Part shown: positions 27,331 through 63,437 of the stretch, in pieces
How the letters are laid out: every line of letters starts with the position of its first letter
Numbering within the stretch: position 1 is the stretch's first letter
Source: a virus
Lineage: Duplodnaviria > Caudoviricetes
Virus record (IMG/VR): IMGVR_UViG_3300032237_000809
Location: 32,001 to 96,000 of that record
DNA length: 64,000 bases
Reading direction: 5' to 3' (one strand)
Made by a program: the position numbers and the translations under genes
The notes under the pieces: generated by a model
The model's input: only the letters and a program-made list of their open reading frames with translations
Database searches by the model: none
What the model was told of the DNA's origin: nothing

Positions 27331-27468
27331 ATGCAAGTTCCAAATCGCTACCATCACTCTAAAAAGGAACAAAAGCGGAAACTCAAACCGCAAGCACTCC
27401 GACAAGCAAAGGCCCGCCGCCAAGCACTCAAGAAGCGTCTCCATCAAAGAGACGCTTCTTTTTTATAA
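27331..27468 (+). CDS. Small highly basic protein (45 aa, not in ORF track)
   Basis: MQVPNRYHHSKKEQKRKLKPQALRQAKARRQALKKRLHQRDASFL, with its own promoter and terminator. Confidence 0.65.
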   Translation: MQVPNRYHHSKKEQKRKLKPQALRQAKARRQALKKRLHQRDASFL

Positions 27469-27471
27469 ATA
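27431..27471 (+). terminator. Intrinsic terminator fused to late promoter
   Basis: AGAAGCGTCTC-CATCAAA-GAGACGCTTCT, T-run, TATAAATA. Confidence 0.8.
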
Positions 27472-27489
27472 TCTAAAAAGATTTTAGAT

Positions 27490-27963
27490 ATGGCAATAAG
27501 AAGATCGCGTAAAGATGAAACTGAAGAAGAAATTGCAGGACAACCAATTCCAAGAAAAAATCTTAGTCCTAAGAAAAGACATGAATTTGAAAAAAGGAGA
27601 AGAGAGGAAAGAGCAAAAAGAGGTGATCCAAGAGTAGGGGATTCTTTTTCTTCTCAAAGAATGATTGGAAGTAGAGGACATGGATCAGAATATGAGAATA
27701 CTAGGGCAATTCGTGAAGAAATTATTTCATATCTTCTGGATGAAGGTTTTGCATCTAATGAGAAATCTGCAGAATCAATTATGAGTGCTATGAGTGAAAC
27801 ATGGATTGAGAGTATTTTTGAAGCAGAAATTCAACCACCAAGAGAAAGGGTTGGTAATCTAACTAATATTAATATCCCTCAAGAAGAAATAGATGCGGCA
27901 AAAAAAAGAACTCTTGAGAAGGCAAGGAGAATGAGGGAAAAAAGAAAAGAAAAAAAAGATTGA
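27490..27963 (+). CDS. EGY-tag family late protein 1
   Basis: Arg/Lys-rich body plus EEIISYLLDEGFA....AESIMSAMSETWIESIFEA motif. Confidence 0.75.
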   Translation: MAIRRSRKDETEEEIAGQPIPRKNLSPKKRHEFEKRRREERAKRGDPRVGDSFSSQRMIGSRGHGSEYENTRAIREEIISYLLDEGFASNEKSAESIMSAMSETWIESIFEAEIQPPRERVGNLTNINIPQEEIDAAKKRTLEKARRMREKRKEKKD

Positions 27964-28018
27964 CCACTTTTCAAACTGGTACATGAGAGGGTCTTAGCAC
28001 CCTCTTTTTTCGTATAGT
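27962..28018 (+). promoter_or_regulatory. Dyad box + terminator hairpin + -10 box restarting early transcription
   Basis: GACCACTTTTCAAACTGGTACA, hairpin AGAGGGT/ACCCTCT with T-run, TATAGT at 28013. Confidence 0.65.
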
Positions 28019-28041
28019 GGGTTCATACCGCACAAAACCAA

Positions 28042-30225
28042 ATGTCTGTCAATCTTGAAATCAAAGGAATGCTTGCTAAACTTCTGGCAACGGAAGATTT
28101 GATCGTTGAGCACAAAAAAGTAGAGACTGCTTGCTTCAACGTTCATACTCGTGTTTTGACCCTACCTTTCTGGGAAAAGGCTAGTGATGCTGTTTACACG
28201 ATGCTTGTAGCTCATGAATGTGGACATGCAATTTTTACGGATGATACTGATTGGTCCAATGAATATAAAATTCCTAAACAATTTGTGAATATTGTTGAAG
28301 ATGTGCGAATTGAAAAATTGATGAAGCGCAAGTATGCTGGTCTTGCCAAATCTTTTTTCAATGGTTATAGGGAACTTTCAATTGAAGATTTCTTTCAACT
28401 GGGAGATGAAGATGTTAATGAGATGAATCTTGCCGATCGTGTCAATCTTTATTATAAAATCGGAAATTTTATTTCTGTTGATTTTACAGAACAAGAGAAA
28501 GAGATTGTCGATCTTATTGGTAGTGTAGAAACTTTTGATGATGCATTGAAGGCTGCTGAAGTACTTTATAATTACTGTAAGCAAGAAAATGAAGAACAAG
28601 AATCTATTCCTGATCTGGATATTGATGCAAATCAATCTTCGGGTTCTCAGAATGATACACCTTCAGATCTCTCTGATCAAACTCAAGGTGAGAATCAATC
28701 TGAACCTACTCCAGATACTTCCGATAAAGATCAAGATGGAGAAAAATCTCAATCAAATGATTCTAAGAATGATTTTAATAATACACAAGAAAAATCTGTA
28801 GATAATCCAAAACCAAGCAATAAAGGTGGAAAGACTTCCGAACCAAAAGTTAATACTATGGATAAACTTGAGAAGTCTCTCAAAGATCTTGTAAATCTTG
28901 ACTCTGTTGATAATGTTTATGTTGAAATTCCCAAATTGGACATTGATAATCTTATCATCAGCAATTCAGAACTTCATAATGTTTGTGAAGAATACTGGGG
29001 TAACAATGTTGAAGCATTTATCACTGCAGATAAAGAGTTTCGTGAGTTTAAAAATTCTACTCAAAAAGAAGTCAATTATTTGGTGAAAGAATTTGAATGC
29101 CGTAAAGCTGCAGATAGTTATGCTCGCGCTACAACTGCCCGTACTGGTGTTTTAGATTGTACAAAACTTCATACTTACAAATACAATGATGATCTATTCC
29201 GAAAAGTTACCACTCTTGCAGATGGTAAAAATCATGGACTAGTGTTCATTCTGGATTGGTCGGGTTCCATGAGTAGAGTGATGTTGGATACCATTAAACA
29301 ACTTTTTAATCTTATTTGGTTCTGTAAAAAACTGAATATTCCTTTTGATGTCTATGCTTTTACATATGATTATCCAGTTTCTAAACGTGAAGAAAATGGC
29401 ACTGTAATTTATCGCAAACCCTCATACAAAAAAGATGATGGCATACTTTGTATTGATGACTCCTTTTCTTTGCTTAATATGCTGACTAGTAAAGTATCTA
29501 ATAGAACACTAGAAAAACAGATGTTGAATATCTATCGTATTGCCAGATATTTTGGTGATAGGAATTATTCTCCGTATAGCATTCCGATTGGTTGGACCCT
29601 TTCCGGAACACCTTTGAATGAAACTTTGGTTGCTCTTCATGAAATTCTTCCTATCTTTCAAAGGAACAATAAAGCTCAAAAAGTTCAGTGTGTAATTCTC
29701 ACAGATGGTGATGCACCACATTTGAAATATCACAAACAATTTAATAATCGAACGTATGGTGGGGATAGTATCCCATATCTGGGTATTGGATCTCTTGGTC
29801 AAAATTCTTATTTGCGTGATCGTAAGACTGGATATACATATTCTCTGAATTGTGGATATAAGGATTTTTCAAATCTTCTTCTTCGCAATCTTCGGGATAA
29901 ATTTCCATCCGTTAATTTTATTGGTATGAGAATTATAGAATCTCATGATTGTAGTAATTTTATTCGTCATTATACTGGATATAATTATGATTCTGATTAT
30001 GGAAAAATTATGAGTCAATGGAAAAAAGAAAAATCTTTTTCTATTAAAAATTCTGGATACCATACTTATTTTGGTATTTCTGCAAGTTCTCTTTCAAGTA
30101 TTGCAGAATTTCAAGTTATTGAAGATGCTACAAAATCTCAAATTAAAAATGCTTTTATGAAAAGTTTAAAGAGTAAAAAAATGAATAAAAAAGTTCTCAA
30201 TGAATTTATTGATTTAATTGTTTAA
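28042..30225 (+). CDS. CobT-like protein: HExxH metallopeptidase domain, acidic linker, VWA domain
   Basis: AHECGH, NIVED.RIE, MIDAS motif LDWSGSM, GTPL, LTDG. Confidence 0.85.
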   Translation: MSVNLEIKGMLAKLLATEDLIVEHKKVETACFNVHTRVLTLPFWEKASDAVYTMLVAHECGHAIFTDDTDWSNEYKIPKQFVNIVEDVRIEKLMKRKYAGLAKSFFNGYRELSIEDFFQLGDEDVNEMNLADRVNLYYKIGNFISVDFTEQEKEIVDLIGSVETFDDALKAAEVLYNYCKQENEEQESIPDLDIDANQSSGSQNDTPSDLSDQTQGENQSEPTPDTSDKDQDGEKSQSNDSKNDFNNTQEKSVDNPKPSNKGGKTSEPKVNTMDKLEKSLKDLVNLDSVDNVYVEIPKLDIDNLIISNSELHNVCEEYWGNNVEAFITADKEFREFKNSTQKEVNYLVKEFECRKAADSYARATTARTGVLDCTKLHTYKYNDDLFRKVTTLADGKNHGLVFILDWSGSMSRVMLDTIKQLFNLIWFCKKLNIPFDVYAFTYDYPVSKREENGTVIYRKPSYKKDDGILCIDDSFSLLNMLTSKVSNRTLEKQMLNIYRIARYFGDRNYSPYSIPIGWTLSGTPLNETLVALHEILPIFQRNNKAQKVQCVILTDGDAPHLKYHKQFNNRTYGGDSIPYLGIGSLGQNSYLRDRKTGYTYSLNCGYKDFSNLLLRNLRDKFPSVNFIGMRIIESHDCSNFIRHYTGYNYDSDYGKIMSQWKKEKSFSIKNSGYHTYFGISASSLSSIAEFQVIEDATKSQIKNAFMKSLKSKKMNKKVLNEFIDLIV

Positions 30226-30264
30226 TTTATAAATAAGAATAGTAAAAGTAAAGTAAATAAGAAA

Positions 30265-31347
30265 ATGAACTCTGAACAAATTAAAGATCTTCATCTACTC
30301 TATACCGCAGTCTATGATGAAGATCTCAGAAAACAGTTTGATGAATATAACAATACCATCTATGACGAAGATATTGTAGAAGTTGCCACAGAGTACTTCT
30401 ATGCATATGGTCTGAATGATGATGGTATTGATATTCTGATTGAAAACATTGGTCTCGATTCTTTTGTGGAATTTGTTTATGATTTATCAGAAGATCTTTA
30501 TGATCTTACGGAAGCAAGAGCAGCAAGAAAAGCAAGGCCTGGTGGCAAAACTATTGAGCAAGTAAAAGCAGATATTGACGCCAAAGAAAAAAAAGCAGCA
30601 GCAAAGAAGGAAGCAAAGAAAAAAGTTACTACAGCAGCTACTGAGAAAACAGAAACAGAGAGAGTAAAACCAGAAACTCGTGGTCCTGAGAGTCAGGCAA
30701 AAGCACAACAACCAAAGGGAAAAAAACCTGTAAGAGATGCCATAGCAAGAACCATTCTTCAAGGTATTGAGCGTCATAATAAGGCAACAGCGACTGCAGG
30801 GCGCCTTGCTGGTGAAACTGGAGCAACTCTTGGTAGAATCGGTTCACTCGCTGCAGAGGCAGGTAGAAGGGCAGGTGAGCATATTAAAAAGCATGGATTG
30901 AAATCTCTTGCACATGAAGAAGTTGAACTTTTGGCGAATCAACTTATTGAGGAAGGTTATGATCTGAGTGATTATACTTGGGATGATATGATTGAGATTT
31001 ATGAAAAAACTGAGTCTAAGTATAAACCAAAAACCAAAGAAGAACTTGCAAGATATGTCTCTGCTCTTGATAGACTGCATCGTATGGCTACAGAAGTACG
31101 TGGACCAGAACCATCATCAACTCCAGAGAAAAAAAGAAAACCAAAAACGGATATGAGAAATGTCCAAGTTCATGAAGATCTTTATGATGTAATTCTCTCA
31201 CATCTTATCGATGAAGGTTATGCTGATTCTGTAGAACGGGCAGAAGTTATTATGGTGAATATGAGTGAAGAGTGGAGAGATGGAATTCTTGATGAAGCAA
31301 ATAGAGCAGACGATCATGTAACATCGAGTATGTATATGAGTAGTTAA
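30265..31347 (+). CDS. EGY-tag family late protein 2
   Basis: N-tag IKDLHLLYTAVY, middle LIEEGYDLSDYTWDDM, C-tag LYDVILSHLIDEGYA..AEVIMVNMSEEWRDGILDEA; late promoter at 30228. Confidence 0.8.
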   Translation: MNSEQIKDLHLLYTAVYDEDLRKQFDEYNNTIYDEDIVEVATEYFYAYGLNDDGIDILIENIGLDSFVEFVYDLSEDLYDLTEARAARKARPGGKTIEQVKADIDAKEKKAAAKKEAKKKVTTAATEKTETERVKPETRGPESQAKAQQPKGKKPVRDAIARTILQGIERHNKATATAGRLAGETGATLGRIGSLAAEAGRRAGEHIKKHGLKSLAHEEVELLANQLIEEGYDLSDYTWDDMIEIYEKTESKYKPKTKEELARYVSALDRLHRMATEVRGPEPSSTPEKKRKPKTDMRNVQVHEDLYDVILSHLIDEGYADSVERAEVIMVNMSEEWRDGILDEANRADDHVTSSMYMSS

Positions 31348-31360
31348 CCATCTACCACAA

Positions 31361-31486
31361 ATGCAAAAAAAATATCGTAGGCAAGGTAGAGACTTTAAGG
31401 GAGTTTTGCATCGTGATGATTGGGAAACCCAAGGAGAACCAATAAGACAAAAGGCACATAAAGATAGAAGAGGTGTAAAATCATAA
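31361..31486 (+). pseudogene. Frameshifted basic tail or 41-aa orphan module of EGY protein 2
   Basis: MQKKYRRQGRDFKGVLHRDDWETQGEPIRQKAHKDRRGVKS, in +1 frame just after the stop. Confidence 0.4.
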
Positions 31487-31544
31487 AACCACTTTCCAAA
31501 CCGTCACAAGGGGCACTTACCTGCCCCTTTTTTGTGTGTATAAT
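31487..31544 (+). promoter_or_regulatory. Dyad box + terminator hairpin + -10 box upstream of cobS
   Basis: AACCACTTTCCAAACCGTCACA, hairpin AAGGGGCA/TGCCCCTT with T-run, TATAAT at 31539. Confidence 0.7.
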
Positions 31545-31578
31545 AAGAGAGTTCAAATGAAACACACCTAACTACATT

Positions 31579-32718
31579 ATGTCTCGTAAAAATTCTGTGA
31601 CCGACGATCAACTGTTTACTGAACTCAAAGAACTGTTTGGTTCTGAATTTAGTGCTGGTGATATCCGTGGATATTGTGCTTTTAACAATCTTAATTATCA
31701 GACCGTGACTCGCCGTCTGGAACCATTTAAAACTGATCGTGGTCGTTGGAATCTTGAAGTGACTCAAGAAAAAATTGACCAAATTGAGCATACCTTCCAA
31801 TCCCCCGCCGCTCTTCCAAGTCTTCCAGTTGTGCAACAAAATCTTATTCCTGAAAAAGACAATACTTTTGTTAAATTTGGAAATTTTAACGATATTAAAA
31901 AAATTATCTCTTCAAATCTTTTTTATCCGACGTTTATTACTGGTCTTTCTGGCAACGGAAAAACTTTCGGTATTGAGCAGGCATGTGCTCAACTGAAACG
32001 TGAAATGATCCGTGTCAATATTACAATTGAGACTGATGAAGACGATTTGATTGGTGGGTTCCGTCTTGTTAATGGTGAAACTGCCTGGCATAATGGTCCA
32101 GTCATCGAAGCACTTCAACGTGGTGCAATTCTTCTTCTCGATGAGATTGATCTTGCATCGAATAAAATCATGTGTCTTCAATCCGTTCTTGAAGGTAAAG
32201 GAGTCTTTCTCAAAAAAATTGGTAAGTTTGTAAATCCTACTGAAGGATTCAACATTTTTGCCACTGCAAATACTAAAGGTAAGGGTTCTGATGATGGTCG
32301 CTTCATCGGCACCAACGTGCTCAATGAAGCGTTCCTGGAGAGGTTCCCAGTGACCTTTGAGCAGTCTTATCCTGCTCCTTCCACCGAACAGAAGATCCTT
32401 GAAGGCATTGCTCTGGACCTTGGTGTGGAAGATCGTGATTTCTGCAAGCGTCTGGTTGATTGGGGTGATGTGATTCGCAAGACCTTCTACGATGGTGGTA
32501 TTGAAGAAATCATCAGCACCCGTCGTCTGGTTCATATCATTCGTGCCTACAGCATTTTTAATGACAAGGCAAAGGCAATTCAAGTTTGTATCAATCGTTT
32601 TGATGATGAAACTAAGACTGCTTTCCTGGAACTCTATGATAAAATCGACGCTGATTTTGTAATGCCTTCTGAAGGTGAGCAAGTGACTTATAATATTGAC
32701 AATATGCCACAAGTCTGA
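31579..32718 (+). CDS. cobS: CobS-like MoxR AAA+ ATPase
   Basis: GLSGNGKT, ETDEDDLIGG, LLLDEID, TANTKG, NEAFLERF, STRRL. Confidence 0.93.
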   Translation: MSRKNSVTDDQLFTELKELFGSEFSAGDIRGYCAFNNLNYQTVTRRLEPFKTDRGRWNLEVTQEKIDQIEHTFQSPAALPSLPVVQQNLIPEKDNTFVKFGNFNDIKKIISSNLFYPTFITGLSGNGKTFGIEQACAQLKREMIRVNITIETDEDDLIGGFRLVNGETAWHNGPVIEALQRGAILLLDEIDLASNKIMCLQSVLEGKGVFLKKIGKFVNPTEGFNIFATANTKGKGSDDGRFIGTNVLNEAFLERFPVTFEQSYPAPSTEQKILEGIALDLGVEDRDFCKRLVDWGDVIRKTFYDGGIEEIISTRRLVHIIRAYSIFNDKAKAIQVCINRFDDETKTAFLELYDKIDADFVMPSEGEQVTYNIDNMPQV

Positions 32719-32724
32719 TATGAT
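32696..32724 (+). promoter_or_regulatory. sigma70-type promoter
   Basis: TTGACA-17-TATGAT. Confidence 0.65.
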
Positions 32725-32760
32725 AGGGGGAGGTAAACTATAATTTCCTTCCCCTTTACT

Positions 32761-34270: not shown

Positions 34271-34334
34271 TTATAAATATTTACGTTTGTAAGTATTCTT
34301 TTTATAAATAGTTATGTAGTCAGAAGACAATCAA

Positions 34335-34916: not shown

Positions 34917-34918
34917 CT

Positions 34919-35428: not shown

Positions 35429-35431
35429 ATT

Positions 35432-37156: not shown

Positions 37157-37157
37157 T

Positions 37158-45207: not shown

Positions 45208-46539
45208 ATGGAAAGACTTGAACTTACAATTTTACGAAACTTGGTATATAATGAAGATTACTCTAGAAAAGTTATACCTTTTATACAACCAGACTATTTT
45301 GAAGAAAGGACTGAAAAAATTATATTTGAAGAAATTGTTAAGTTTATTGTAAAATATGGGTCAGCAATTACAATAGAGGCACTTGGAATCGAGATTCAAA
45401 ATAGAACTGATTTAACAGAATCTGAAATCAAACAAATTCATGAACTTATTTCTAGTTTTCATAATGGTGTAGTAGAAAAACAATGGATTCTTGATACTAC
45501 TGAAAAATGGTGTAGAGACCGAGCGATTTATCTTGCATTGATGGAATCTATTCATATTGCCGATGGTAATAATGAAAAGAAAAATCGTGATGCAATTCCT
45601 AGTATTTTATCTGATGCTCTTGCAGTATCTTTTGATAATAATATAGGACATGATTATCTTGAAAATTATGAAGATAGGTATGAATTTTATCATCGTAAAG
45701 AAGATAAAATTGAGTTTGATTTAGACTATTTTAATAAAATTACAAAAGGAGGTTTACCTAATAAAACTCTCAACATTGCTCTTGCTGGAACTGGTGTTGG
45801 AAAATCTCTTTTCATGTGTCATGTTGCTAGTTCTGCTTTATTACAGGGTAGAAATGTTCTTTACATAACTCTTGAAATGGCAGAAGAAAGAATTGCTGAA
45901 AGAATTGATGCAAATCTCTTCAATCTACCAATTCAACAACTGATTGATTTGCCAAAACATACGTTTGAAACTAAAGTAAATAGTATCTCTAAAAAGACTA
46001 GAGGTTCTTTAGTGATCAAAGAATATCCAACTGCTTCTGCACATTCTGGACATTTTAAAGCACTTCTTAATGAACTTGCTCTTAAAAAATCATTTAGACC
46101 TGATATTATTTTTATTGACTATCTTAATATTTGTGCTTCTTCTAGGCATAAAGCAAATACCTCAGTCAATTCTTATACTTATATCAAGGCAATTGCTGAG
46201 GAACTTCGTGGTCTTGCAGTTGAGTTTAATGTTCCCATTGTCTCTGCTACTCAGACCACTCGTTCAGGGTATTGCTTGGACTTGAAAACACAAGTTCAAA
46301 CACCGCAAGGACTGAAAGAACTTTCAAATATTCAAGTTGGAGATTTGGTGCTTTCAAATACTGGTTATAATGAAGTCCTAAATGTTTTTCCAAAATCCAA
46401 AAAGAAATCTTATAAGATTACTTTGGAAGATGGTAAAGAAATTATTTGTAGTGAAGAACACTTGTTCCCAACTCAAAATGGTGAAGTGAATATCAAAGGG
46501 GGTTTGAAAGAAGGTATGTCTCTTTATGTAAAAGAATAG
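45208..46539 (+). CDS. gp41: Replicative helicase, N-terminal part, with split-intein IntN
   Basis: AGTGVGKS, TLEMAEE, IDYLNI, SATQTTRSGY followed by CLDLKTQV. Confidence 0.96.
   Translation: MERLELTILRNLVYNEDYSRKVIPFIQPDYFEERTEKIIFEEIVKFIVKYGSAITIEALGIEIQNRTDLTESEIKQIHELISSFHNGVVEKQWILDTTEKWCRDRAIYLALMESIHIADGNNEKKNRDAIPSILSDALAVSFDNNIGHDYLENYEDRYEFYHRKEDKIEFDLDYFNKITKGGLPNKTLNIALAGTGVGKSLFMCHVASSALLQGRNVLYITLEMAEERIAERIDANLFNLPIQQLIDLPKHTFETKVNSISKKTRGSLVIKEYPTASAHSGHFKALLNELALKKSFRPDIIFIDYLNICASSRHKANTSVNSYTYIKAIAEELRGLAVEFNVPIVSATQTTRSGYCLDLKTQVQTPQGLKELSNIQVGDLVLSNTGYNEVLNVFPKSKKKSYKITLEDGKEIICSEEHLFPTQNGEVNIKGGLKEGMSLYVKE
46273..46536 (+). mobile_element. Split intein N-fragment (88 aa), gp41-1-like
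   Basis: CLDLKTQVQTPQG...IICSEEHLFPT...LYVKE then stop. Confidence 0.93.
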
Positions 46540-46588
46540 TATGTGTAAGTTTTACTTCTTATAAATAATAGTAGTATAACTTACTGAT

Positions 46589-47254
46589 ATGAAAGTAAAG
46601 ATTTATCTAATTACCAACACAGCAGTCAATCCGCATATGTATTATGTTGGATTGACTAAAAATGAATTGGATAGAAGATTACAAGAACATATCACTCTTG
46701 GAAGGCATGAAGGAAATAAACTTCTGTCTGATGCTATTATTGAATATGGTAAAAGAAACTTTACTATTGAAGTGATAGAAGAAGTTGATGAAAGTGAAGC
46801 AAGAATAAAAGAAGATTATTATATTCGCAAATATAAATCTCATTATAGAGATGGATGTGGATATAATATGAAATATGAAACTTCTAATTATGAGAAACAC
46901 TATCACGGAGCAAATCAAGAACTAATAGAAGAGAATATTAGAAATGGTAGGGCGTGGAACTATGGAATAAGTTTTTCTACACAATCAAAAGAAAAAATGA
47001 GAAAAACTAAAAAGCATAGATATTCTCTTGGTGTTTATAAAAAGTTCAATACAAATCATTCACAAGAAACTAAAAATAAAATCGCAGAAAGTAAAAAAGG
47101 ACAAAAACTTACAGAGGAACATAGAAAAAATATTTCTAAATCTTCTGTTGGTAGAACTTGGATTTATAATCCAGAGTTGAATGAAAGAAAGTTTGTAAAA
47201 CAAGATGAGTTGGAAATGTTCTTGGAAAGTGGTTGGAGGAAAGGTAGATTATAA
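46589..47254 (+). CDS. GIY-YIG homing endonuclease with NUMOD3 repeats, between the gp41 halves
   Basis: KIYLITN....YYVGLT...L.RR..EH, AI.EYG..NF.IEVIE, GYN; late promoter at 46560 within a hairpin. Confidence 0.88.
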   Translation: MKVKIYLITNTAVNPHMYYVGLTKNELDRRLQEHITLGRHEGNKLLSDAIIEYGKRNFTIEVIEEVDESEARIKEDYYIRKYKSHYRDGCGYNMKYETSNYEKHYHGANQELIEENIRNGRAWNYGISFSTQSKEKMRKTKKHRYSLGVYKKFNTNHSQETKNKIAESKKGQKLTEEHRKNISKSSVGRTWIYNPELNERKFVKQDELEMFLESGWRKGRL

Positions 47255-47276
47255 ATAAACTTATAGTGTAAAAAAA

Positions 47277-47873
47277 ATGGACTCACAAGAATTACGCAAT
47301 CTTCAAGAAGCATATTTGAAAGTTTGTGAACTTGATGAAGCAAATAGAGTTGAAAGACATTTAGGAATACATTCAAATACTCCAGAAAATGAATTGTCTA
47401 GAATGAAACGCAGAGCGTCTGTTAGTGGCGTTGGAAGTGGAAAAAGTGATATAAATCCCGGAACCTTACGCATGAATAGAGGTGTCGCTAGAATGGTAAC
47501 AAAAAGAAATAGAGGAAAATCACCTTCCGATCCAACATATACAAAAAGAAGAGGAATAGATCCACATGCCGATGTAAAATCTTGGAGAGATTCACCTTTA
47601 GGATTACCAAAAGGGTATAAAGATCCACTTAATCCAAGAACTTCTAAAAATATTGGAAATAAAGTACAGGTTAAAACTAAACCCGCAAGTAAGTTATGGA
47701 GTAATCCACATCAAGCATCCAGTAAAATAGTTAAATTTAGAAGAGAAGATTTTGACATCTACGATATCATCCTCTCACATCTTTTAGATGAAGGTTATGC
47801 CGAAACACCAGAAGCAGCAGAAGCAATTATGGTGAATATGAGTGAAGAATGGAGAGATAGTATTATTGGTTGA
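47277..47873 (+). CDS. EGY-tag family late protein 3 (inside the fractured gp41 locus)
   Basis: N-tag ELRNLQEAYLKV.ELDEA, basic body, C-tag IYDIILSHLLDEGYAETPEAAEAIMVNMSEEWRDSII; late promoter at 47250. Confidence 0.82.
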   Translation: MDSQELRNLQEAYLKVCELDEANRVERHLGIHSNTPENELSRMKRRASVSGVGSGKSDINPGTLRMNRGVARMVTKRNRGKSPSDPTYTKRRGIDPHADVKSWRDSPLGLPKGYKDPLNPRTSKNIGNKVQVKTKPASKLWSNPHQASSKIVKFRREDFDIYDIILSHLLDEGYAETPEAAEAIMVNMSEEWRDSIIG

Positions 47874-47894
47874 TAAAATCATAAAATCTTTCTC

Positions 47895-47934
47895 AACCAC
47901 TCACCTTGCTTTTGGTGTGTGGTTTTGTTATAAT
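47895..47934 (+). promoter_or_regulatory. Hairpin plus sigma70 promoter for the gp41 C-terminal half
   Basis: AACCAC-T-CACC / GGTG-T-GTGGTT hairpin; TTGCTT(47906)-17-TATAAT(47929) with extended TG. Confidence 0.7.
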
Positions 47935-47953
47935 GTGAATAGGTAAGAACTCT

Positions 47954-48379
47954 ATGATGCTGAAAAAAATTCTAAAAATTGAAGAACTTGATGAAAGAGA
48001 ACTTATAGATATTGAAGTGTCTGGAAATCATTTGTTTTATGCGAATGCTATTCTCACACATAATAGTAGCTCTGATGTTGAACTTACTGATACTTCAGAA
48101 TCCTTCGGTCTTCCTGCTACTGCTGATCTTATGTTTGCTCTTATAAGTACAGAAGAGTTGGAAGAATTGGGACAAATTATGGTAAAACAACTTAAAAATA
48201 GATATAATGATCCGACAATTTATAAACGTTTTGTTGTTGGCATTGATCGTGCAAAAATGAGACTTTATGATGTAGAACAGTCCGCTCAAAAAGACATACT
48301 TGACAGTGGACAAAAAGAGGAGTATAATTGCGAAGAAAAGACACCAAAAAAATTATTTGAGGGATTTAAATTTTCATGA
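47954..48379 (+). CDS. gp41: Split-intein IntC (37 aa, 47954-48064) fused to helicase C-terminal part
   Basis: MMLKKILKIEELDERELIDIEVSGNHLFYANAILTHN then SSSDV.LTDTSESFGLPATAD, KQLKNRY. Confidence 0.95.
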   Translation: MMLKKILKIEELDERELIDIEVSGNHLFYANAILTHNSSSDVELTDTSESFGLPATADLMFALISTEELEELGQIMVKQLKNRYNDPTIYKRFVVGIDRAKMRLYDVEQSAQKDILDSGQKEEYNCEEKTPKKLFEGFKFS

Positions 48380-49141: not shown

Positions 49142-49549
49142 ATGTCAATTCTCGGAAAAAGAAAAGGTAGACCAACTACCAAAATACAACTTGATTCTAT
49201 TCTGAAGCAATTTAAACTTTTTCTTAAACGAGAACTTCGTCTTAATTATGATATTCCAGTTATTCTGGTCGATGATGTTGATTTTTCTAAAAAAATGAAA
49301 GCATTTGGAGAAATCTCACATGAAAATATTATTCATGTGAGTATTATTAATCGTCATCCTATTGATATTTTAAGAACTCTTGCTCATGAATATGTTCATT
49401 ATAAACAATTCATGGAAAAGGGTATTCATCATAGATCTTCCCGTGCTGGTAGTCCTGCTGAAAATGAAGCAAATGCTAAGGCAGGTGAAATTATGAGAAA
49501 ATATGGACAACTTCATCCAGAATTATTTGATTTAATGCCTATTAGATAA
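49142..49549 (+). CDS. Small zincin-like (HExxH) protein
   Basis: DILRTLAHEYVHYKQ...E.EANAKAG. Confidence 0.72.
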   Translation: MSILGKRKGRPTTKIQLDSILKQFKLFLKRELRLNYDIPVILVDDVDFSKKMKAFGEISHENIIHVSIINRHPIDILRTLAHEYVHYKQFMEKGIHHRSSRAGSPAENEANAKAGEIMRKYGQLHPELFDLMPIR

Positions 49550-49564
49550 TATAATTCTTTTTTT

Positions 49565-49637
49565 GGGGAATTAGCTCAGTTGGTAGAGCGCGGTCTTTGC
49601 AAGGCCGATGTCAGGAGTTCGAGCCTCCTATTCTCCA
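49565..49637 (+). tRNA. tRNA-Ala (anticodon UGC), CCA not encoded
   Basis: Acceptor GGGGAAT/ATTCTCC with G3:U70, D-arm GCTC..GAGC, anticodon arm CGGTC-TTTGCAA-GGCCG, T-loop GTTCGAGC. Confidence 0.95.
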
Positions 49638-49690
49638 CTTTTTAAAGTGGCACATATCATCTTGTCAAACCTAGTATGATGTCTTATCAT
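49633..49690 (+). promoter_or_regulatory. Dyad box plus sigma70 promoter overlapping the tRNA 3' end
   Basis: CCACTTT-TT-AAAGTGG-CACA; TTGTCA(49662)-17-TATCAT(49685). Confidence 0.7.
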
Positions 49691-53416: not shown

Positions 53417-53441
53417 ATTAAATCCAATAATCAAATAATTA

Positions 53442-53481: not shown

Positions 53482-53512
53482 TCAATAGAAAAAGAATTTA
53501 TAGGTAAAGCAC

Positions 53513-54541: not shown

Positions 54542-54549
54542 AATATAAT

Positions 54550-55148: not shown

Positions 55149-55226
55149 ATTTAACTTAAATAAATAATAGTATGATTTATTAAATTCGTTTCGTGAGTTA
55201 GAAACGTAAATCAATCCTAATCTAAA

Positions 55227-55682: not shown

Positions 55683-55730
55683 CGATTTCATAATCTTGTG
55701 TTAAACTAGAAGTCCTGAAAGTTTTTGCGA

Positions 55731-56705: not shown

Positions 56706-59002
56706 GTAACGGAACACGGGTAGTTAAGAGAAATGGATCTGTTGAAGGTTTAGATTTAAATAAACTTCATTTGATGGTAGAAGAAGCATGTAAGGATCTG
56801 GCAGGAGTATCAGCATCACAAGTTGAAATGCAATCTGGTATTCAATTTTATGATGGAATTTCTACAGTAGAAGTTCAGGAAATTTTGATTCGCTCTGCTT
56901 CTGACCTAATTGATCTTGAACATCCTAATTATCAATTTGTTGCTGCTCGTTTGCTTTTATTCGCTCTTCGTAAACAATTGTTTGGTCGTATGTATGAATG
57001 TCCAAATGTTCTTGAGCATACTAAAAAATGTGTAGAACTTGGTGTTTATGATGAAGAGATTCTTTCTCTATATAATGAGGAAGAGTTTGAAAAACTTCAA
57101 TCATTTGTTGATCATGATCGTGATTATCTTTTTACTTATGCAGGTCTTCGTCAGGTAGTTGATAAGTATTTGGTACAAGATCGTAGTAGTGGACAACTTT
57201 ATGAAACTCCACAATTCATGTATCTTTTGATTGCTGCCACTATTTTTTCTAAATATCCAAAAGAAACACGTTTAGATTATGTTAAGAGGTATTATGATGC
57301 AATCAGCAAACACAAGATCAACATCCCAACACCAATCATGGCAGGAGTCAGAACACCTCTTCGCCAATATGCTTCTTGTGTTCTCGTTGATGTTGATGAT
57401 ACCCTCAGGAGTATCGGTCACTCTGATTTGGCTATTTACGAATATGTTGCACAGAGAGCTGGTATCGGTATCAACGCAGGTAGAATCCGTGGCATCAACT
57501 CTAAAATCAGAGGTGGAGAGGTACAACACACAGGCATTATTCCCTTCCTTAAGAAGTTTGAAGCAACTGTCAGATCTTGCACACAAAACGGTATTAGAGG
57601 TGGTTCTGCTACAGTCTTTTTTCCTATCTGGCATCAAGAAATAAGTGATATTCTGGTCTTAAAAAATAATAAAGGAACTGAAGATAATCGTGTTCGTAAG
57701 TTAGACTATGGAATTCAACTCAGCAAAATCTTCTATGAACGATTCATTCAAAACGGAGAAATCACACTTTTCTCACCACACGATGTTCCTGGTCTTTATG
57801 ATGCTTTTGGCACTGATAGATTTGACGACCTTTACGTGGGTTATGAACGAGATGCATCTGTTCCAAGAAAAACTATCGGTGCTCAAGAACTCTTTTTGGA
57901 CCTTCTGAAGGAAAGAGCAGAAACTGGTCGTATTTACATTATGAATATTGACCATTGTAATTCTCATAGTCCTTTCCTTGATAAGATTTCAATGAGCAAT
58001 CTTTGTATGGAAATACTTTTGCCGACTAAACCAATTCAACACATTGATGATCCAAATGGTGAAATTGCTCTTTGCATTCTTAGTGCTATCAATATTGGAA
58101 AGATTAAAACCAATGAAGATCTTGAAGTTCTTTGTGATCTTGCCATTAGAAGTCTTGATGAACTTATTGATTTTCAAGGATATCCCGTTAAAGCAGCAGA
58201 AATCGCAACCAAAGCGCGACGTTCACTTGGAGTAGGTTATATTGGTCTTGCACACTATCTTGCCAAGAATAATGTCAAATATGATGATCAGAATGCTTGG
58301 CAATTGGTTCATGATTTAACTGAGGCATTCCAATATTATCTAATCAAGGCAACCGTAAATCTTGCAAAAGAAAAAGGGGCATGTGCATATTCTCATCGTA
58401 CCAAGTACGGTCAAGGAATTCTGCCAATTGATACCTATAAAAAGGATGTTGATGAATTGGTTGAAAATGTGCTAAAATATGATTGGGAAGCACTTCGGGA
58501 AGAGGTAAAAATTTATGGAGTCAGAAACTCCACTCTCTCAGCACAAATGCCCTCCGAGAGCAGTTCAGTCGTCTCCAATGCCACAAATGGAATTGAACCA
58601 CCTCGCGGATATCTATCCATTAAGAAGTCCAAGAAAGGTCCTCTTAAGCAAATTGTCCCACAGTTTGGAACACTCAAAAACAATTATACGTTGCTTTGGG
58701 ATATGCCTAGCAATCGTGGTTATATTAGTATTGTTGCAGTTATGCAGAAGTTCTTCGATCAAGCGATTTCTGGAAACTGGTCCTATAATCCGGGCAATTA
58801 TCCGAATAATGAAGTTCCTGTTAGCGTGATGGCACAAGATATGCTTACGTGCTTTAAGTATGGGCATAAAACTGCATATTATCAAAACACTTATGATAAT
58901 AAAACTGATGAAGTGGTAGATGAACCAAAGCAAGAACTCAATTCACTTCTTGATGATATTATGAGTTCTGATGAAACTAGTTGCGATAGTTGCTCAATTT
59001 AA
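56702..59002 (+). CDS. nrdA: Ribonucleotide reductase class Ia alpha subunit
   Basis: ATP cone, PTPIM, SCVL, SNLCMEI, MPSESSS, YYQ, C-terminal CDSC. Confidence 0.98.
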   Translation: MSNGTRVVKRNGSVEGLDLNKLHLMVEEACKDLAGVSASQVEMQSGIQFYDGISTVEVQEILIRSASDLIDLEHPNYQFVAARLLLFALRKQLFGRMYECPNVLEHTKKCVELGVYDEEILSLYNEEEFEKLQSFVDHDRDYLFTYAGLRQVVDKYLVQDRSSGQLYETPQFMYLLIAATIFSKYPKETRLDYVKRYYDAISKHKINIPTPIMAGVRTPLRQYASCVLVDVDDTLRSIGHSDLAIYEYVAQRAGIGINAGRIRGINSKIRGGEVQHTGIIPFLKKFEATVRSCTQNGIRGGSATVFFPIWHQEISDILVLKNNKGTEDNRVRKLDYGIQLSKIFYERFIQNGEITLFSPHDVPGLYDAFGTDRFDDLYVGYERDASVPRKTIGAQELFLDLLKERAETGRIYIMNIDHCNSHSPFLDKISMSNLCMEILLPTKPIQHIDDPNGEIALCILSAINIGKIKTNEDLEVLCDLAIRSLDELIDFQGYPVKAAEIATKARRSLGVGYIGLAHYLAKNNVKYDDQNAWQLVHDLTEAFQYYLIKATVNLAKEKGACAYSHRTKYGQGILPIDTYKKDVDELVENVLKYDWEALREEVKIYGVRNSTLSAQMPSESSSVVSNATNGIEPPRGYLSIKKSKKGPLKQIVPQFGTLKNNYTLLWDMPSNRGYISIVAVMQKFFDQAISGNWSYNPGNYPNNEVPVSVMAQDMLTCFKYGHKTAYYQNTYDNKTDEVVDEPKQELNSLLDDIMSSDETSCDSCSI

Positions 59003-59021
59003 AAATAAATAAGGAAAAAGT

Positions 59022-60164
59022 ATGATTGATAATATGACAGTTTTCAATTCCCATGAAGTTGATACCAAAAAGCAACCAATGTTTTTTGGACAACCTCTTG
59101 GCATTCAACGATATGATACTTACAAGTATCCTATTTTTGATAAATTGACTCAACAACAATTAAGTTATTTTTGGCGTCCTGAAGAAATATCACTTCAAAA
59201 AGACCGTGGTGATTATCAAACACTTCGACCCGAACAGAAACATATTTTTACTTCTAATCTAAAATATCAAATTATGTTAGATTCCATTCAAGGTCGTGGA
59301 CCAGGAATGGCATTTGCTCCCTACTGCTCACTTCCAGAATTAGAAGCGTGTATGAAGGTTTGGGAATTTATGGAAATGATTCACTCACGATCTTATACAT
59401 ATATTATCAAAAATATATATTCAGATCCTTCGGATGTGTTTGATACTATTCTTAGAGATGAAAAAATTCTTGAACGCGCATATAGTGTAACCGAAGCATA
59501 TGATGATTTTATCAATAGTGCTCAACATTATGGAACTTCTGAACTTTGGAAACACGCTCAAGAACAAGTTCCCTATGCACAGGATCAAAGATATGAACTC
59601 AAAAGAAAGCTCTTTAGAGCAGTTGCAAATGTTAATATTCTTGAAGGTATTCGTTTTTACGTCAGTTTTGCTTGCAGTTTTGCATTTGGCGAACTCAAAC
59701 TTATGGAAGGAAGTGCAAAAATCATCAGTCTGATTGCGCGTGACGAGAATCAACATCTAGTCATTACTCAAAATATTTTGAACAAATGGAAAGAAAGTGA
59801 TGATCCTGATATGAAGAAAATCATGGATGAAGAAGAACCATGGGTATATAAGACCTTTGAAAAAGCAGTCAATCAAGAGAAACTTTGGGCAGAATATCTG
59901 TTCAAAGATGGTTCTATGATTGGTCTGAATGATAAACTTCTTCAGCAATATGTTGAATGGATTGCAAATCGTCGTATGAGGGCGATTGGTTTGAAACCTC
60001 TTTATGATATTCCAGCAAAAAATAATCCACTTCCTTGGACGGAGCATTGGATTTCTTCCAAAGGATTGCAAGTAGCTCCACAAGAAGTGGAAGCGGAACA
60101 ATATTTAATTGGAGGAATTAAACAAGATGTTACCAAAGATACTTTCTCAGGATTCCAATTATGA
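59022..60164 (+). CDS. nrdB: Ribonucleotide reductase class Ia beta subunit
   Basis: FWRPEE, DSIQGR, EMIHSRSY, EGIRFY, RDENQH. Confidence 0.98.
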   Translation: MIDNMTVFNSHEVDTKKQPMFFGQPLGIQRYDTYKYPIFDKLTQQQLSYFWRPEEISLQKDRGDYQTLRPEQKHIFTSNLKYQIMLDSIQGRGPGMAFAPYCSLPELEACMKVWEFMEMIHSRSYTYIIKNIYSDPSDVFDTILRDEKILERAYSVTEAYDDFINSAQHYGTSELWKHAQEQVPYAQDQRYELKRKLFRAVANVNILEGIRFYVSFACSFAFGELKLMEGSAKIISLIARDENQHLVITQNILNKWKESDDPDMKKIMDEEEPWVYKTFEKAVNQEKLWAEYLFKDGSMIGLNDKLLQQYVEWIANRRMRAIGLKPLYDIPAKNNPLPWTEHWISSKGLQVAPQEVEAEQYLIGGIKQDVTKDTFSGFQL

Positions 60165-60288
60165 TGAATGGGTAGAACAGGAAATTTTGAATGCCTTTAA
60201 AGATGCTGCAGAAGTAGATGAATTTATTTTTGGTGATTATAATTATGAAGAAGACTGGTTAGGTAAAATGAATAATGATATCAATTGA
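60127..60288 (+). CDS. Small acidic hypothetical protein (53 aa, not in ORF track)
   Basis: MLPKILSQDSNYDEWVEQEILNAFKDAAEVDEFIFGDY...; overlaps the nrdB end and stops at the terminator. Confidence 0.5.
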   Translation: MLPKILSQDSNYDEWVEQEILNAFKDAAEVDEFIFGDYNYEEDWLGKMNNDIN

Positions 60289-60318
60289 GAGTCCTTTGGG
60301 ACTCTTTTTTTATAAATA
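60288..60318 (+). terminator. Intrinsic terminator fused to late promoter
   Basis: AGAGTCC-TTTG-GGACTCT, T-run, TATAAATA. Confidence 0.8.
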
Positions 60319-60402
60319 AAATTATAAAAAGGTATATTAAATGGAAAGAATTACATCGAATCAAGTAGTTGATTTAATGGAGGCATATCAGGCAGTATAT
60401 GT

Positions 60403-60506
60403 TCCTCAAGAAAATTTAAATGAAGAATTGGTCTGGGAAGAAGTTGAAAATTGGTCCTCAAGAAAATTTAAATGAAGAATTGGTCTGGGAAGAAGTTGAA
60501 AATTGG
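60403..60506 (+). repeat. Perfect 52-bp tandem duplication
   Basis: TCCTCAAGAAAATTTAAATGAAGAATTGGTCTGGGAAGAAGTTGAAAATTGG twice. Confidence 0.95.
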
Positions 60507-61019
60507 GTAAATTCTCTTTTAGAAGAAGGATATGACTTGGGAGATTATGCTTGGGAAGAAATGTATGAGGAATATTTGAGTGAAGTTCCCATGACTGGTA
60601 GCAATCGTCCCACTAAATTAAGTGACCCGTTAGCAAATACAGGACGCGCTATAGGAAGTGCAGCACGTTCTTTTGTTACGGGTTCCTCTAGACCAGGCAA
60701 TACTGGATCTCAATCTACGAGGGCAACACAACCTTCACCAGGAACTTCGACTGGTGGGGGAGGATATGCTGCCGGCCGTACTACAAGTTCACCGGTAACA
60801 CCATATCGTGCAAATGATCCTAGAAGAACTGATACTAGTACAAGATCAAGATTTGCTCGTCCAATGAATGCAGGAACTCCAAGTACAGTTGCCGTCAGAG
60901 GAACTGGTGGATCTTCTACACAAAGACCACCAATTGGATCTTTACCTGCAAGTGCAAGACAACCAACACAATATCCAGCAGGAGTTTCTACTGGTGTTGG
61001 TGGTGGAAATGCTGGTGCC

Positions 61020-61212
61020 TCTAGACCCGCTCCTGCTGCCCCTGCTAGACCAGTTGCTAGACCCTCTGCTGCCGCTCCTAGACCCGCTGCTAGTGCCCCT
61101 GCTGCCGCTCCTAGACCAGTTGCTAGACCGTCTGCTGCTCCTGCTCCTAGTGTCCCTAGATCCGCTACTAGTGCCCCTGCTGCCGCTCCTAGACCCGCTG
61201 CTAGTGCTCCTA
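61020..61212 (+). repeat. Coding minisatellite (Ala-Pro-Arg-Ser repeats)
   Basis: Recurring CCTGCTGCCGCTCCTAGACC / GCTAGTGCCC units encoding APAAAPRP. Confidence 0.85.
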
Positions 61213-61737
61213 GTATATCAAAATCTACATCTCAAGCACCTAGTACATCCCCTGCTGCAACAACTGGTAATCCACCATTAGCACCAAAACCATTACCCCC
61301 AATCATGGGTAAACCAAGTCTTTCATCGCAAGCAGCAGAAATTCGTGCCATGAGACAAAGATCTCAACAACGTATTATCTCACAAGGTGGAACTCCAGCA
61401 ACTGCATTGGTTCAAAGTTTTGATCCATTTGATGTTGTATTGGGACATCTAATTGATGAAGGTTATGCTGATACTGAAGAATCAGCACTCCAAATTATGG
61501 CAAATATGAGTGAAGAGTGGAGAGATGGAATTCTTGATGAAGCAAAAACTGTTATGAGTGTGACATCACCTTCTGAAAAATCCAGAAGATTAAATATATC
61601 CAAAGCTAAACCTTCAGAAAATTTGGAAGGTTAAAGAAGACTGTCTGCTGCCAGAGATATGAAACAACAGGATGTTGATCGTAGGGCTCCTCAAATTGAA
61701 AAAAAAAAAATTAAAAGAAGACATAATATTAATTGAA

Positions 61738-61793
61738 GACTACTTTCCAAACTGTTCATATAGAGGTCTTCGGACCTCTTTTTTTTATAAATA
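61738..61793 (+). terminator. Degenerate dyad box + UUCG terminator + late promoter
   Basis: GACTACTTTCCAAACTGTTCA; AGAGGTC-TTCG-GACCTCT, T-run, TATAAATA. Confidence 0.8.
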
Positions 61794-61820
61794 AGTTTAT
61801 ACAGAAAATATTTTATTAAA

Positions 61821-63356
61821 ATGTCTAACCTATCAACAGAAGTTTTTGGAGATATGAATTTTCTTTATGAGCATATTGCAACTAAAGAAAATGAAAAACT
61901 TAATGAAAACTCTGAATACTATGACGAAGAATTTGCAGAACTTGTAGAGAATATTATTTCTACTATTTCTTTATCAATGGTCTATGAAGGTTATAGTGCA
62001 GAAGGAATTTTATCATTTCTTGCAGATTTTTCAGAAGAAGATATCGTTGAAAGATATTTAAATTTTGATGAAAATATTCTTACGGAAAGTGTAGTTCCTG
62101 AAGAGTATATTGTTGAACAATTAGATATTTTTGATAACGCCATTTCTGAAGGTTTAGGAACAGTAATTGGAAGAGTTGCTAAAGGTGCAGCTTCCCTGGC
62201 AGGAAGAATTGTTTCAAAACCTGCAAGAATGAAGGTTGCACAAAAACTCATGACTAGCACAAATCCTGCTAGAACAGGAAAGGCAGTTGATAGATTGGCA
62301 AGAATGAAGTTGAACAAGGCAGGAGCTCCTGCGGATGTGACTAAAGGTTTAGTAGATGCTGCACCAAATATTTCAACAAAAGCTAGATTAATAGCAACTG
62401 CTCCTGTAATGGGTAAGGTCGTTAAGGGTGTACAAAAAGTAAAAGATATTGCCAGAGGTGCAAAAGCAGCATTAACGGGTTCAACTGCTAAAAAAATTGG
62501 TTTGGGTGCTGCAGCATTAGGTGCTGCTACTGGAGCAGGTTATATTGGTGGTAAGATGTCGGGAGCAGGTGGTGGTCAAGGATCTTCACCAGCAATTGCA
62601 AAATCAACAGGTAAACCCTCTGACAATTTTATGCAAGGTAGTTCTCTTGCTAAACTTGGTGGAAGAGAAGGTAGAGTTAAAGGTGGAGAATTTAGAAGTA
62701 TTAATTGGACGCAACAATCTAGAGATAGGTATAACGCAGCAAATCCATCTACAAAACCTACAGCATCTGCTGCATCTACACCTTCTGCTCCTAGTGGCAG
62801 TGGTGGTGGTTCTGCTGCATCTTCTGGTGGCGGTGGCGGTGGTGCTGGAACAAGAGCACCTTCTGCTGCAAGAGCATCTTCTCCATCAAAAGCATCCTCT
62901 GCTACAAAGGCAAAAGAAACGGGTAAAACTCCAGCAGGAGAGACACCAATGCAGACTTGGGCAAGAACTAATCCAAAACTTGCTGCTAAAGTAAAACTTG
63001 GTCAGTCTGGATACGATGAAATTTCTGCAAAAAGAACTGTACCTGGACCTTATGAAAAACAGGATCAAACTCCAACAACTGGACCAGAACCAACAGAAGC
63101 ACAAAAGACTCAAGCAGGATCAGATGTTGCTGCATATCAGGCAGCAGAAAAGGAAAGATTTAATAAAAAGCAAAAAGAAGTAGCAGCATTAACACAGAAA
63201 GAATCTTATGATGCATATGATTTGGTAATTGAATATTTACTTCATACTGGACATGCAGATACAATCTCTGAAGCAGAATATGTAATATCAAATTTTGATT
63301 CTGATATGCTTGATACTCTTATTGAATCTACAGCAATCTGGATTGAAAATCTTTGA
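61821..63356 (+). CDS. EGY-tag family late protein 5 (divergent), with Gly/Ala hydrophobic segment and low-complexity body
   Basis: Acidic N-terminal region with VYEGYS, IGLGAAALGAATGAGYIGG, C-tag YDAYDLVIEYLLHTGHADTISEAEYVI. Confidence 0.72.
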   Translation: MSNLSTEVFGDMNFLYEHIATKENEKLNENSEYYDEEFAELVENIISTISLSMVYEGYSAEGILSFLADFSEEDIVERYLNFDENILTESVVPEEYIVEQLDIFDNAISEGLGTVIGRVAKGAASLAGRIVSKPARMKVAQKLMTSTNPARTGKAVDRLARMKLNKAGAPADVTKGLVDAAPNISTKARLIATAPVMGKVVKGVQKVKDIARGAKAALTGSTAKKIGLGAAALGAATGAGYIGGKMSGAGGGQGSSPAIAKSTGKPSDNFMQGSSLAKLGGREGRVKGGEFRSINWTQQSRDRYNAANPSTKPTASAASTPSAPSGSGGGSAASSGGGGGGAGTRAPSAARASSPSKASSATKAKETGKTPAGETPMQTWARTNPKLAAKVKLGQSGYDEISAKRTVPGPYEKQDQTPTTGPEPTEAQKTQAGSDVAAYQAAEKERFNKKQKEVAALTQKESYDAYDLVIEYLLHTGHADTISEAEYVISNFDSDMLDTLIESTAIWIENL

Positions 63357-63364
63357 TTACTGAG

Positions 63365-63437
63365 ATTATAACATAATCTAAGGGGGCTTGACAAGTCCTC
63401 TTTTTTTATGTAGACTAGGTTTGTCCCGGTTGAAGAT
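63365..63437. promoter_or_regulatory. 73-bp bidirectional promoter element, copy 2 (also forms a terminator hairpin)
   Basis: TTGACA(63388)-17-TAGACT(63411)-AGG-TTTGTCCCGGTTGAAGAT; minus-strand TTGTCA-18-TATAAT. Confidence 0.75.

Follow-up and report, generated by a model that had tools for sequence, protein, structure and literature searches.

The arrangement described here is a late-gene variation on gene-shuffling layouts already known from promoter-early stem-loops (PeSLs), morons and fractured genes. It lies in a window of 64,000 nucleotides (nt), bases 32001-96000 of a 125.5-kb IMG/VR virus contig (IMGVR_UViG_3300032237_000809), in which all genes are on the + strand and five putative late genes of one protein family stand among the replication genes of a T4-like myovirus. 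Morons, a concept that goes back to Juhala and Hendrix, are genes inserted between backbone genes together with their own promoter and terminator, and the classical ones are expressed from the prophage. The internal proteins of T4 are encoded by late genes, share a capsid-targeting sequence that the prohead protease cleaves, and are packaged in the head. Loci of these internal proteins come up in the discussion section of one PeSL study (PMC2839356). PeSLs flank ORFans in hyperplastic regions, and that study and a second one propose that they insulate transcription and serve as sites of homologous recombination (PMC2839356; PMC4122927). Flanking PeSLs are reported to recombine into mini-circles. 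The word 'cyanophage' occurs in neither of these two texts (Arbiol et al., 2010; Comeau et al., 2014), and the part of a further study that deals with S-PM2 judges its PeSLs too sparse to explain the ORFanage region (Puxty et al., 2015; PMC4503421). Fractured genes combine a split intein with a free-standing homing endonuclease and, in the excerpted account of gp41-1 to gp41-7, comprise three coding regions (Dassa et al., 2009; PMC2677866).

The five genes encode proteins with a common C-terminal domain, for which we built a hidden Markov model (HMM), famC, from metagenome homologues. They match it with E-values of 2.7e-16, 1.2e-23, 1.1e-30, 1.3e-21 and 1.5e-14 (genes 1 to 5), and gene 3 additionally matches the famN HMM (E = 1.5e-14). 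The closest cultured relative is the freshwater Synechococcus phage S-SRM01, with 73-79% nucleotide identity across the aligning parts. An initial annotation of the window had described the family genes as portable cassettes that bring their own terminators and promoters and split operons. The best explanation of the data as a whole is, in our judgement, a different one and probably correct: accessory late genes situated at resident stop/restart boundaries and exchanged by recombination. The features concerned are as follows, with open reading frames (ORFs) as annotated and with promoters and terminators as predicted.

27332-27469, + strand: small basic ORF of 45 codons after gp46, whose 3' end is the terminator 27430-27460 and whose stop codon shares bases with TATAAATA at 27464.
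27464-27963, + strand: late promoter (27464-71), leader and family gene 1 (27490-27963; famC HMM).
27963-28018, + strand: resident element before the CobT-like peptidase gene, with motif ACCACTTTTCAAACTG, hairpin 27985-28006, T-run and -10 box TATAGT (28013-18).
30228-31347, + strand: late promoter (30228-35) and family gene 2 (30265-31347, 360 amino acids (aa); famC; counterpart in S-SRM01).
31488-31544, + strand: resident element before cobS, with motif 31488-503, hairpin 31508-29, T-run and -10 box TATAAT (31539-44).
45208-46539, + strand: N part of the gp41 helicase gene with the intein-N half (PHROG 19; Hint-like tail).
46560-47254, + strand: late promoter within a hairpin (46560) and GIY-YIG homing endonuclease gene (46589-47254, 221 aa; PHROG 314).
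47250-47873, + strand: family gene 3 (47277-47873, 198 aa; famC and famN), preceded by a late promoter that overlaps the stop codon of the endonuclease gene.
47874-47953, + strand: 3' untranslated region (3'UTR), hairpin 47895-47924 and extended -10 TGTTATAAT (-10 at 47929-34) before intein-C/gp41-C, from folding and relatives.
47954-48379, + strand: intein-C half with the gp41 C part (Intein_splicing, E = 0.0022, below the Pfam cut-off).
60287-61634, + strand: terminator 60287-306, late promoter 60311-18 and family gene 4 (start 60341; long ORF 60420-61634; famC and scans).
61739-63356, + strand: motif 61739-54, terminator 61762-79, late promoter 61786-93 and family gene 5 (61821-63356, 511 aa; famC and scans).
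63380-63416, + strand: predicted and resident promoter of the segE-like gene (63465-63914), made up of a hairpin whose loop contains TTGACA, a T-run and TAGACT.

We recovered the late promoter word TATAAATA at every position that had been named for it, namely 27464, 30228, 47250, 60311, 61786, 18552 and 53474. It is strongly biased in strand, with 20 copies on + vs 2 on -, and it lies 20-40 nt 5' of all five family starts, provided that gene 4 is started at the ATG at 60341. The window has 73 gene junctions, and TATAAATA precedes all five family genes vs 10 of the 68 others (p = 2e-4). Among the non-redundant family genes of IMG/VR, NATAAATA stands at most 60 nt before the start in 54/59, mostly at -26 to -31, and the leader that follows is nearly invariant. 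Traits of a T4-type late unit are present: TATAAATA in the -10 position, a gene for the late sigma factor gp55 (23173-23718; PHROG 234, E = 5.6e-67) and one for the gp45 clamp (PHROG 223). Each family gene is predicted to have its own gp55-type late promoter. Thompson et al., 2016 (PMC5082946) contains nothing on promoter motifs.

Terminators were called with tool scans for a hairpin followed by a T-run, together with a scan of our own that allowed longer loops. The tool scans returned 27430-60, 27985-28006, 31508-29, 18527-48, 60287-306, 61762-79 and 63380-402, and our own scan added 53442-66, whose 9-nt loop had escaped the tool. The nine named hairpins fold with -10.8 to -18.4 kcal/mol (z -3.0 to -7.7), and terminators are found at 6/9 family-adjacent junctions vs 3/64 other junctions (Fisher test, p = 3.7e-5). 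The folding and this enrichment confirm the recurring layout of a late promoter and terminators around family genes that the initial annotation had noticed, and two of its details hold as well: the T-run leads straight into TATAAATA at 18546, 27459, 53467, 60305 and 61779, and the late promoters at 30228 and 47250 are bare, the genes starting at 30265 and 47277 having no terminator upstream. The downstream side had been described as a terminator-like hairpin laid over a sigma-70 promoter. Hairpins and -10 boxes are indeed present at all four sites, the hairpins (-11.0 to -15.1 kcal/mol, z -3.0 to -4.7) adjacent to or overlapping the promoter and the -10 boxes in a fixed position in relatives, but the sigma-70 scan is passed by 63388-63416 alone (TTGACA-17-TAGACT, 10/12). 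The hairpin at 47895-924 is a weak terminator because just four U come after it.

In this anatomy the family genes are like morons, being single genes with a private promoter, with a terminator on both sides in three of the five (genes 1, 4 and 5), absent from relatives and standing between genes that are adjacent in many of them. Unlike classical morons, they would act late in a lytic infection, and instead of being unrelated genes they are paralogues from a single large family.

This family comprises 3569 proteins at E <= 0.001 and is unnamed and virus-only. A Pfam search of the five window proteins matched no family, and a PHROG scan placed family proteins in PHROG 3708, a group of unknown function. 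In the protein atlas the family appears in virus-only 'hypothetical protein' clusters alone, with all structure matches at template modelling (TM) scores below 0.3, and an HMM search of the contig returned no further copy elsewhere on it. A typical member has a constant N-terminal helix of ~17 residues, an unalignable middle and, at the C-terminus, a constant domain of ~45 residues. In the AlphaFold model only the N helix and the three C-terminal helices are confident: the predicted local distance difference test (pLDDT) score averages 75 over the first ten residues, reaches 83-87 over the last forty and is 45-64 in between, so that the middle is predicted to be disordered. The protein of gene 1 (157 aa) has a divergent N-terminus, and that of gene 2 is 48% identical to its S-SRM01 counterpart across 90% of the query. 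In a limited literature search, confined to main texts, we found no paper on this family or on late-gene cassettes in cyanophages.

Relatives were compared in several sets, among them 80 IMG/VR loci around the peptidase gene with three cultured phages, 80 loci around nrdB, and 80 retrieved via the gp41 N part. In the last of these, 76 loci have gp41 as one ORF, one (L235) has it split and three are cut off or unclear. The initial annotation had taken gp41-N and gp41-C to be separated by family gene 3. The split is instead due to a split intein and a GIY-YIG endonuclease, the N part ending in a Hint-like match (E = 0.0047) and the C part beginning with an Intein_splicing match, both below Pfam cut-offs. 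The intein halves, the endonuclease and the existence of family-free split loci rule out the family gene as the cause. Here gp41 is a fractured gene, with splicing predicted, and its order resembles the described part of the known cases: gp41-N/intein-N, a spacer hairpin containing TATAAATA, a GIY-YIG gene between the halves and intein-C/gp41-C, all on one strand. It differs from what the excerpted description gives in that the window and 15 further loci add a fourth gene and a hairpin/promoter and have an endonuclease of 221 aa instead of 254 aa.

A query with the endonuclease gave 42 loci, with 41 relatives of the enzyme at 77-100% identity; the gp41 C part is included in 36 of the loci. In the 15 that have a family gene behind the endonuclease, the extended -10 TGnTATAAT is present in 15/15 and the hairpin in 14/15; in the 21 that have none, they are present in 1/21 and 0/21. 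The sole family-free case with TGnTATAAT, L344, keeps only the 3' half of the element, beside an unrelated ORF. The endonuclease has 254 aa in family-free loci and 221 aa in family-bearing ones, where its stop lies inside TATAAATAA, the late promoter word providing the new stop codon; in family-free split loci the gp41 C part usually comes directly after, or overlaps, the preceding ORF. Given this joint presence and absence and the shortened endonuclease, the late promoter, the gene and the hairpin/promoter form one indel, which replaced the last 33 codons of the endonuclease.

We then compared nucleotide identity segment by segment between the window and the 16 family-bearing split-gp41 loci. 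The end of the gp41 N part is 88-97% identical (15 loci; one locus is without that segment) and the endonuclease 89-99% (16 loci). Within the family gene, the leader and first 20 codons are 76-92% identical (16 loci), the 402-nt middle has no match in 16/16 loci, and the last 135 nt, coding for the C-terminus, are again 84-91% identical (16 loci). The 3'UTR with its hairpin and promoter follows with 85-100% (15 loci reaching it), and the gp41 C part with 79-87% in 13 full-length matches, two partial matches giving 83% and 94% (the latter a 119-nt fragment, L368). Since the ends and untranslated regions are conserved and the middle has no match, the exchangeable unit is the middle of the ORF. 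The higher identity of the intein-N end, the endonuclease and the hairpin/promoter (88-100%) vs the gp41 C extein (79-87%) is as expected of a recently spreading homing element.

Copy number varies as well. A nrdB gene and a + strand segE-like gene are both present in 57 of the 80 loci fetched around nrdB, and of these loci 37 have no famC-positive gene in between, while 15 have a single one and 5 have two. These counts are an undercount, because L272, L274 and L298 match family gene 4 by BLAST and not by HMM.

Such variation bears on a reading without any mobility, in which the family genes are ancient residents, inherited vertically and lost in relatives, with disordered middles that evolve fast and with terminators that are ordinary late-gene punctuation. 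It would account for the recurrence of a few slots in many phages (after the small ORF of gp46, in the gp41 gap and between nrdB and segE), for the predicted disorder of the middle, and for the finding that family occupancy of the peptidase slots is limited to the freshwater clade nearest to the window. Against this, the middles in the gp41 gap have no detectable similarity where the endonuclease is 94-99% identical, and the proteins there range from 114 to 198 aa, which is hard to reach via point divergence. Likewise, 0 to 3 copies occur among loci with 78-91% identical NrdB, and L344 retains half a hairpin next to a different ORF. We therefore regard a history without mobility as unlikely.

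Around the peptidase gene the order gp47, DUF3110, gp46, slot A, peptidase, slot B, cobS, gp45 is conserved, and S-SRM01 has the same layout as the window, with family genes in both slots. Slot A, between gp46 and the peptidase gene, is compact in 40 of 58 loci, has other DNA in 15 and family genes in 3. Slot B is compact in 48 of 77 loci, in which the cobT-like gene and cobS are adjacent; other DNA lies between them in 27, which goes against the initial annotation's claim that the two normally go together, and family genes in 2. Comparing relatives for empty and filled sites, as had been proposed, we saw empty, filled and multi-copy sites, and not the same ORFs everywhere.

We assessed residency in family-free loci by the presence of a hairpin of -12 kcal/mol or stronger within 110 nt upstream. 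Such a hairpin precedes the peptidase gene in 42/55 loci and cobS in 24/52, and the control genes gp45, gp47 and gp46 in 2/44, 3/33 and 2/36. The sequence of the peptidase and cobS hairpins varies between phages and their position is constant. The succession of motif, GC hairpin, T-run and TATAAT/TATAGT box stands before the peptidase gene, and often before cobS, in relatives without a family gene; L026 has the cobS element although its slot is without one. At the third site, the segE hairpin (TTGACA in the loop), the T-run and TAGACT/TAGAAT are present with or without family genes and are retained in the empty loci L277, L303, L305 and L310, where nrdB and segE are 124-225 nt apart. As these hairpin-promoter elements are kept in family-free relatives, the family genes stand at pre-existing transcription-unit boundaries, and the notion of an operon interrupted and then restarted by the insert is not borne out. 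The elements before the peptidase gene, cobS and the segE-like gene are resident backbone punctuation.

The terminator upstream of family gene 1, at 27431, had likewise been counted as a cassette part. It is the 3' end of the resident small ORF, and L009, where this slot is free of family genes, has it too. The 45-codon ORF with its hairpin occurs in relatives with and without a family gene, in marine and freshwater cyanomyoviruses alike; it has no PHROG match. The motif ahead of the single hairpin in marine relatives is made of the last codons of the small ORF. At the L009 junction the 27430-type terminator directly adjoins the second element, no gene intervening, and this junction may be a deletion footprint or a precursor state.

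The motif itself, 16 nt long, has three good copies in the window (27963-27978, 31488-31503 and 61739-61754), all at variable slots. At <=3 mismatches it has 4 matches vs 1.9 expected, a number that 14/100 shuffles reach. A partly palindromic motif of ~16-20 nt is seen ~40-60 nt upstream of the -10 box of peptidase and cobS in many cyanomyoviruses, coding in some phages and non-coding in others. A strict regular expression finds it in 21/59 peptidase-upstream regions, and by eye it is visible in many more. It may serve as a binding site for a regulator or as an element of a middle promoter.

These results decide most of what the initial annotation had proposed in full, namely self-contained units with their own terminators, late promoters and restart promoters that split joined operons. 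At the gp41 gap the picture of a portable unit fits, the gene and the hairpin/TGnTATAAT promoter being present or absent jointly. Tandem arrays point the same way: L154 has three copies, L026 two, and the window genes 4 and 5, each copy being followed by its own motif and hairpin and then by the next late promoter (in the window, between 61634 and 61821). At the peptidase, cobS and segE sites, three of the four, it is contradicted by elements that persist without family genes. In addition, the terminator at 27430 is part of a resident ORF, the break in gp41 is due to an intein and an endonuclease, and two of the genes have no terminator upstream. As a general model, units of this kind are less likely still than immobile residents.

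The resident elements resemble PeSLs in that a GC stem-loop lies beside or over a promoter, host-type in PeSLs and predicted here, at joints where accessory ORFs come, go and get replaced, and indels or replacements between related phages are bounded by the elements here. The cargo differs: it is a late gene with its own TATAAATA promoter, whereas PeSL cargo is an early ORFan driven by the PeSL. The elements at three of the sites here are moreover fixed predicted promoters of core-adjacent genes, conserved across distant cyanomyoviruses, with hairpins that are unlike between sites and -35 boxes that are mostly poor.

Least likely of the three alternatives is that hitch-hiking with homing endonucleases, through co-conversion with neighbouring GIY-YIG or HNH genes, is the main driver. 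Family genes 1 and 2 have no endonuclease neighbour. The segE-like gene keeps its position in nearly all relatives, whether family genes are there or not, and so does not have the look of an active invader at that site. In favour of hitch-hiking, family gene 3 lies between a GIY-YIG gene and intein-C, the endonuclease and its flanks (89-99%) are more conserved than full-length gp41-C, family gene 5 adjoins a SegE-type GIY-YIG gene, and the endonuclease genes at 23760, 34335, 44063 and 46589 account for all remaining late-promoter genes in the replication module.

Several points also weigh against the account that we prefer, accessory late genes at resident boundaries. The relatives with an empty peptidase slot are distant (38-56% peptidase identity), so that gain and loss there can be neither dated nor ordered. 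Two of the five genes (those at 30265 and 47277) have no upstream terminator and 'insulation' is therefore incomplete; in IMG/VR, before de-duplication, 23/76 family genes have an upstream and 33/76 a downstream terminator, the latter being 28/59 among non-redundant genes. Three of the downstream promoters have a good -10 (TATAGT, TATAAT and TGTTATAAT) and a poor -35, and promoter and terminator activity is here a prediction from sequence. Hairpins of different slots have little sequence in common, and homology for recombination across slots would have to be supplied largely by the 16-nt motif, the T-run and the ends of the gene itself. Finally, the 15 gp41-gap loci are closely related to one another and may represent a single event.

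With these reservations, the preferred account would run as follows. The five genes would be moron-like accessory late genes of one very large phage family, each transcribed from its own gp55-type late promoter, which would travel with the conserved leader. They would be placed where the replication module already has a stop and a restart, made up of a GC hairpin, a T-run and a -10 box. This PeSL-like punctuation would bar early and middle transcription from the late gene, and late transcription from the next gene, giving late-only expression and early silence; by shielding the neighbours it would make gain or loss of DNA there harmless to them. The -10 boxes would start the next early or middle unit. 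Gain, loss, tandem duplication and replacement would probably proceed by homologous recombination, with the repeated punctuation elements and the constant ends of the family (promoter, leader and N-terminal codons; C-terminal codons and 3'UTR) as the likely handles. In the gp41 gap, we suggest one ancestral insertion of late promoter, gene and hairpin/TGnTATAAT promoter into the 3' end of the endonuclease gene, the copy there now being co-mobilised with the homing element of the fractured gp41.

By analogy, the family proteins would recall the internal proteins of T4 in late expression, a basic disordered body and constant termini. Both sets comprise late genes, predicted ones in the family, whose products join a short constant N-terminus to bodies unrelated to one another, at hyperplastic loci bounded by promoter/stem-loop motifs. 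The two sets have no sequence relation, and the family, known here from genes alone, differs in its constant helical C-terminal domain of ~45 residues and in having several slots. A tentative extension, which we hold to be possible but doubtful, is that the constant ends (late promoter, leader and N-terminal helix; three-helix C-terminal domain and 3'UTR) and the PeSL-like punctuation make up a cassette-exchange system that swaps unrelated disordered middles between paralogues and phages while late expression, and probably a constant targeting or docking function, is kept; this would be a cyanophage counterpart of the T4 internal-protein system, dispersed across several slots of the genome.

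Two of the family genes show local irregularities. Family gene 4 has its true start at the ATG at 60341, a perfect 52-nt tandem duplication (60403-60506; 2.0 copies, 100% match) breaks the frame after 39 codons, and the long ORF is 60420-61634. Its relatives have a single copy of the 52-nt unit and an uninterrupted N-terminus, and the duplication could have arisen recently by mutation or be an artefact of assembly. In family gene 2, the tail past the constant domain (window 31290-31500) resembles the segment after the N helix of the member P0034, and the 3'UTRs of genes 2 and 3 have a 13-nt string in common. The tail and 3'UTR of gene 2 may, by this resemblance, be the remnant of a fused or decayed second family gene.

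The remainder of the window is that of a T4-like myovirus, as seen with PHROG and Pfam scans. The head/tail module includes the protease (head maturation protease gene at 14613-15263), scaffold, major head protein, sheath and tube, and the replication module a uvsW-like helicase, gp55, gp47, gp46, the CobT-like 'peptidase', cobS, gp45, gp44/62, regA, gp43, uvsX, gp41, mazG, gp61 and nrdAB. There are at least seven endonuclease genes, plus the segE-like one. Outside the structural genes and the family, the genes driven by TATAAATA are HNH or GIY-YIG endonucleases (23760, 34335, 44063, 46589, 18583 and 20104). The core of the segE promoter (TTGACA, TAGACT and a leader of ~20 nt; 63381-63437) is repeated in inverted form at 23140-23200 on the - strand, upstream of gp55 and without the 3' arm of the hairpin. 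A hairpin with a T7 run (49520-49564) is directly followed by a tRNA-Ala gene (49565-49638). In other cyanomyoviruses (L197, L198, L208, L210-L214 and L225), family genes occupy an extra slot after mazG and a 61-aa ORF, where the window has other genes.

PeSL-type shuffling is on record for early ORFans in coliphages and vibriophages, and the same logic appears here around late genes in a freshwater T4-like cyanophage. The residency result separates a cassette that carries its own signals from one that lands at existing signals, and it identifies a small set of permissive sites in an otherwise conserved replication module. The analysis also flags a very large unnamed, virus-only family with constant ends and exchangeable middles, one member of which sits inside a fractured-gene homing element. 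The architecture of motif, hairpin and -10 box before the peptidase gene and cobS, conserved across cyanomyoviruses, is a candidate handle on the regulation of middle genes in cyanophages.

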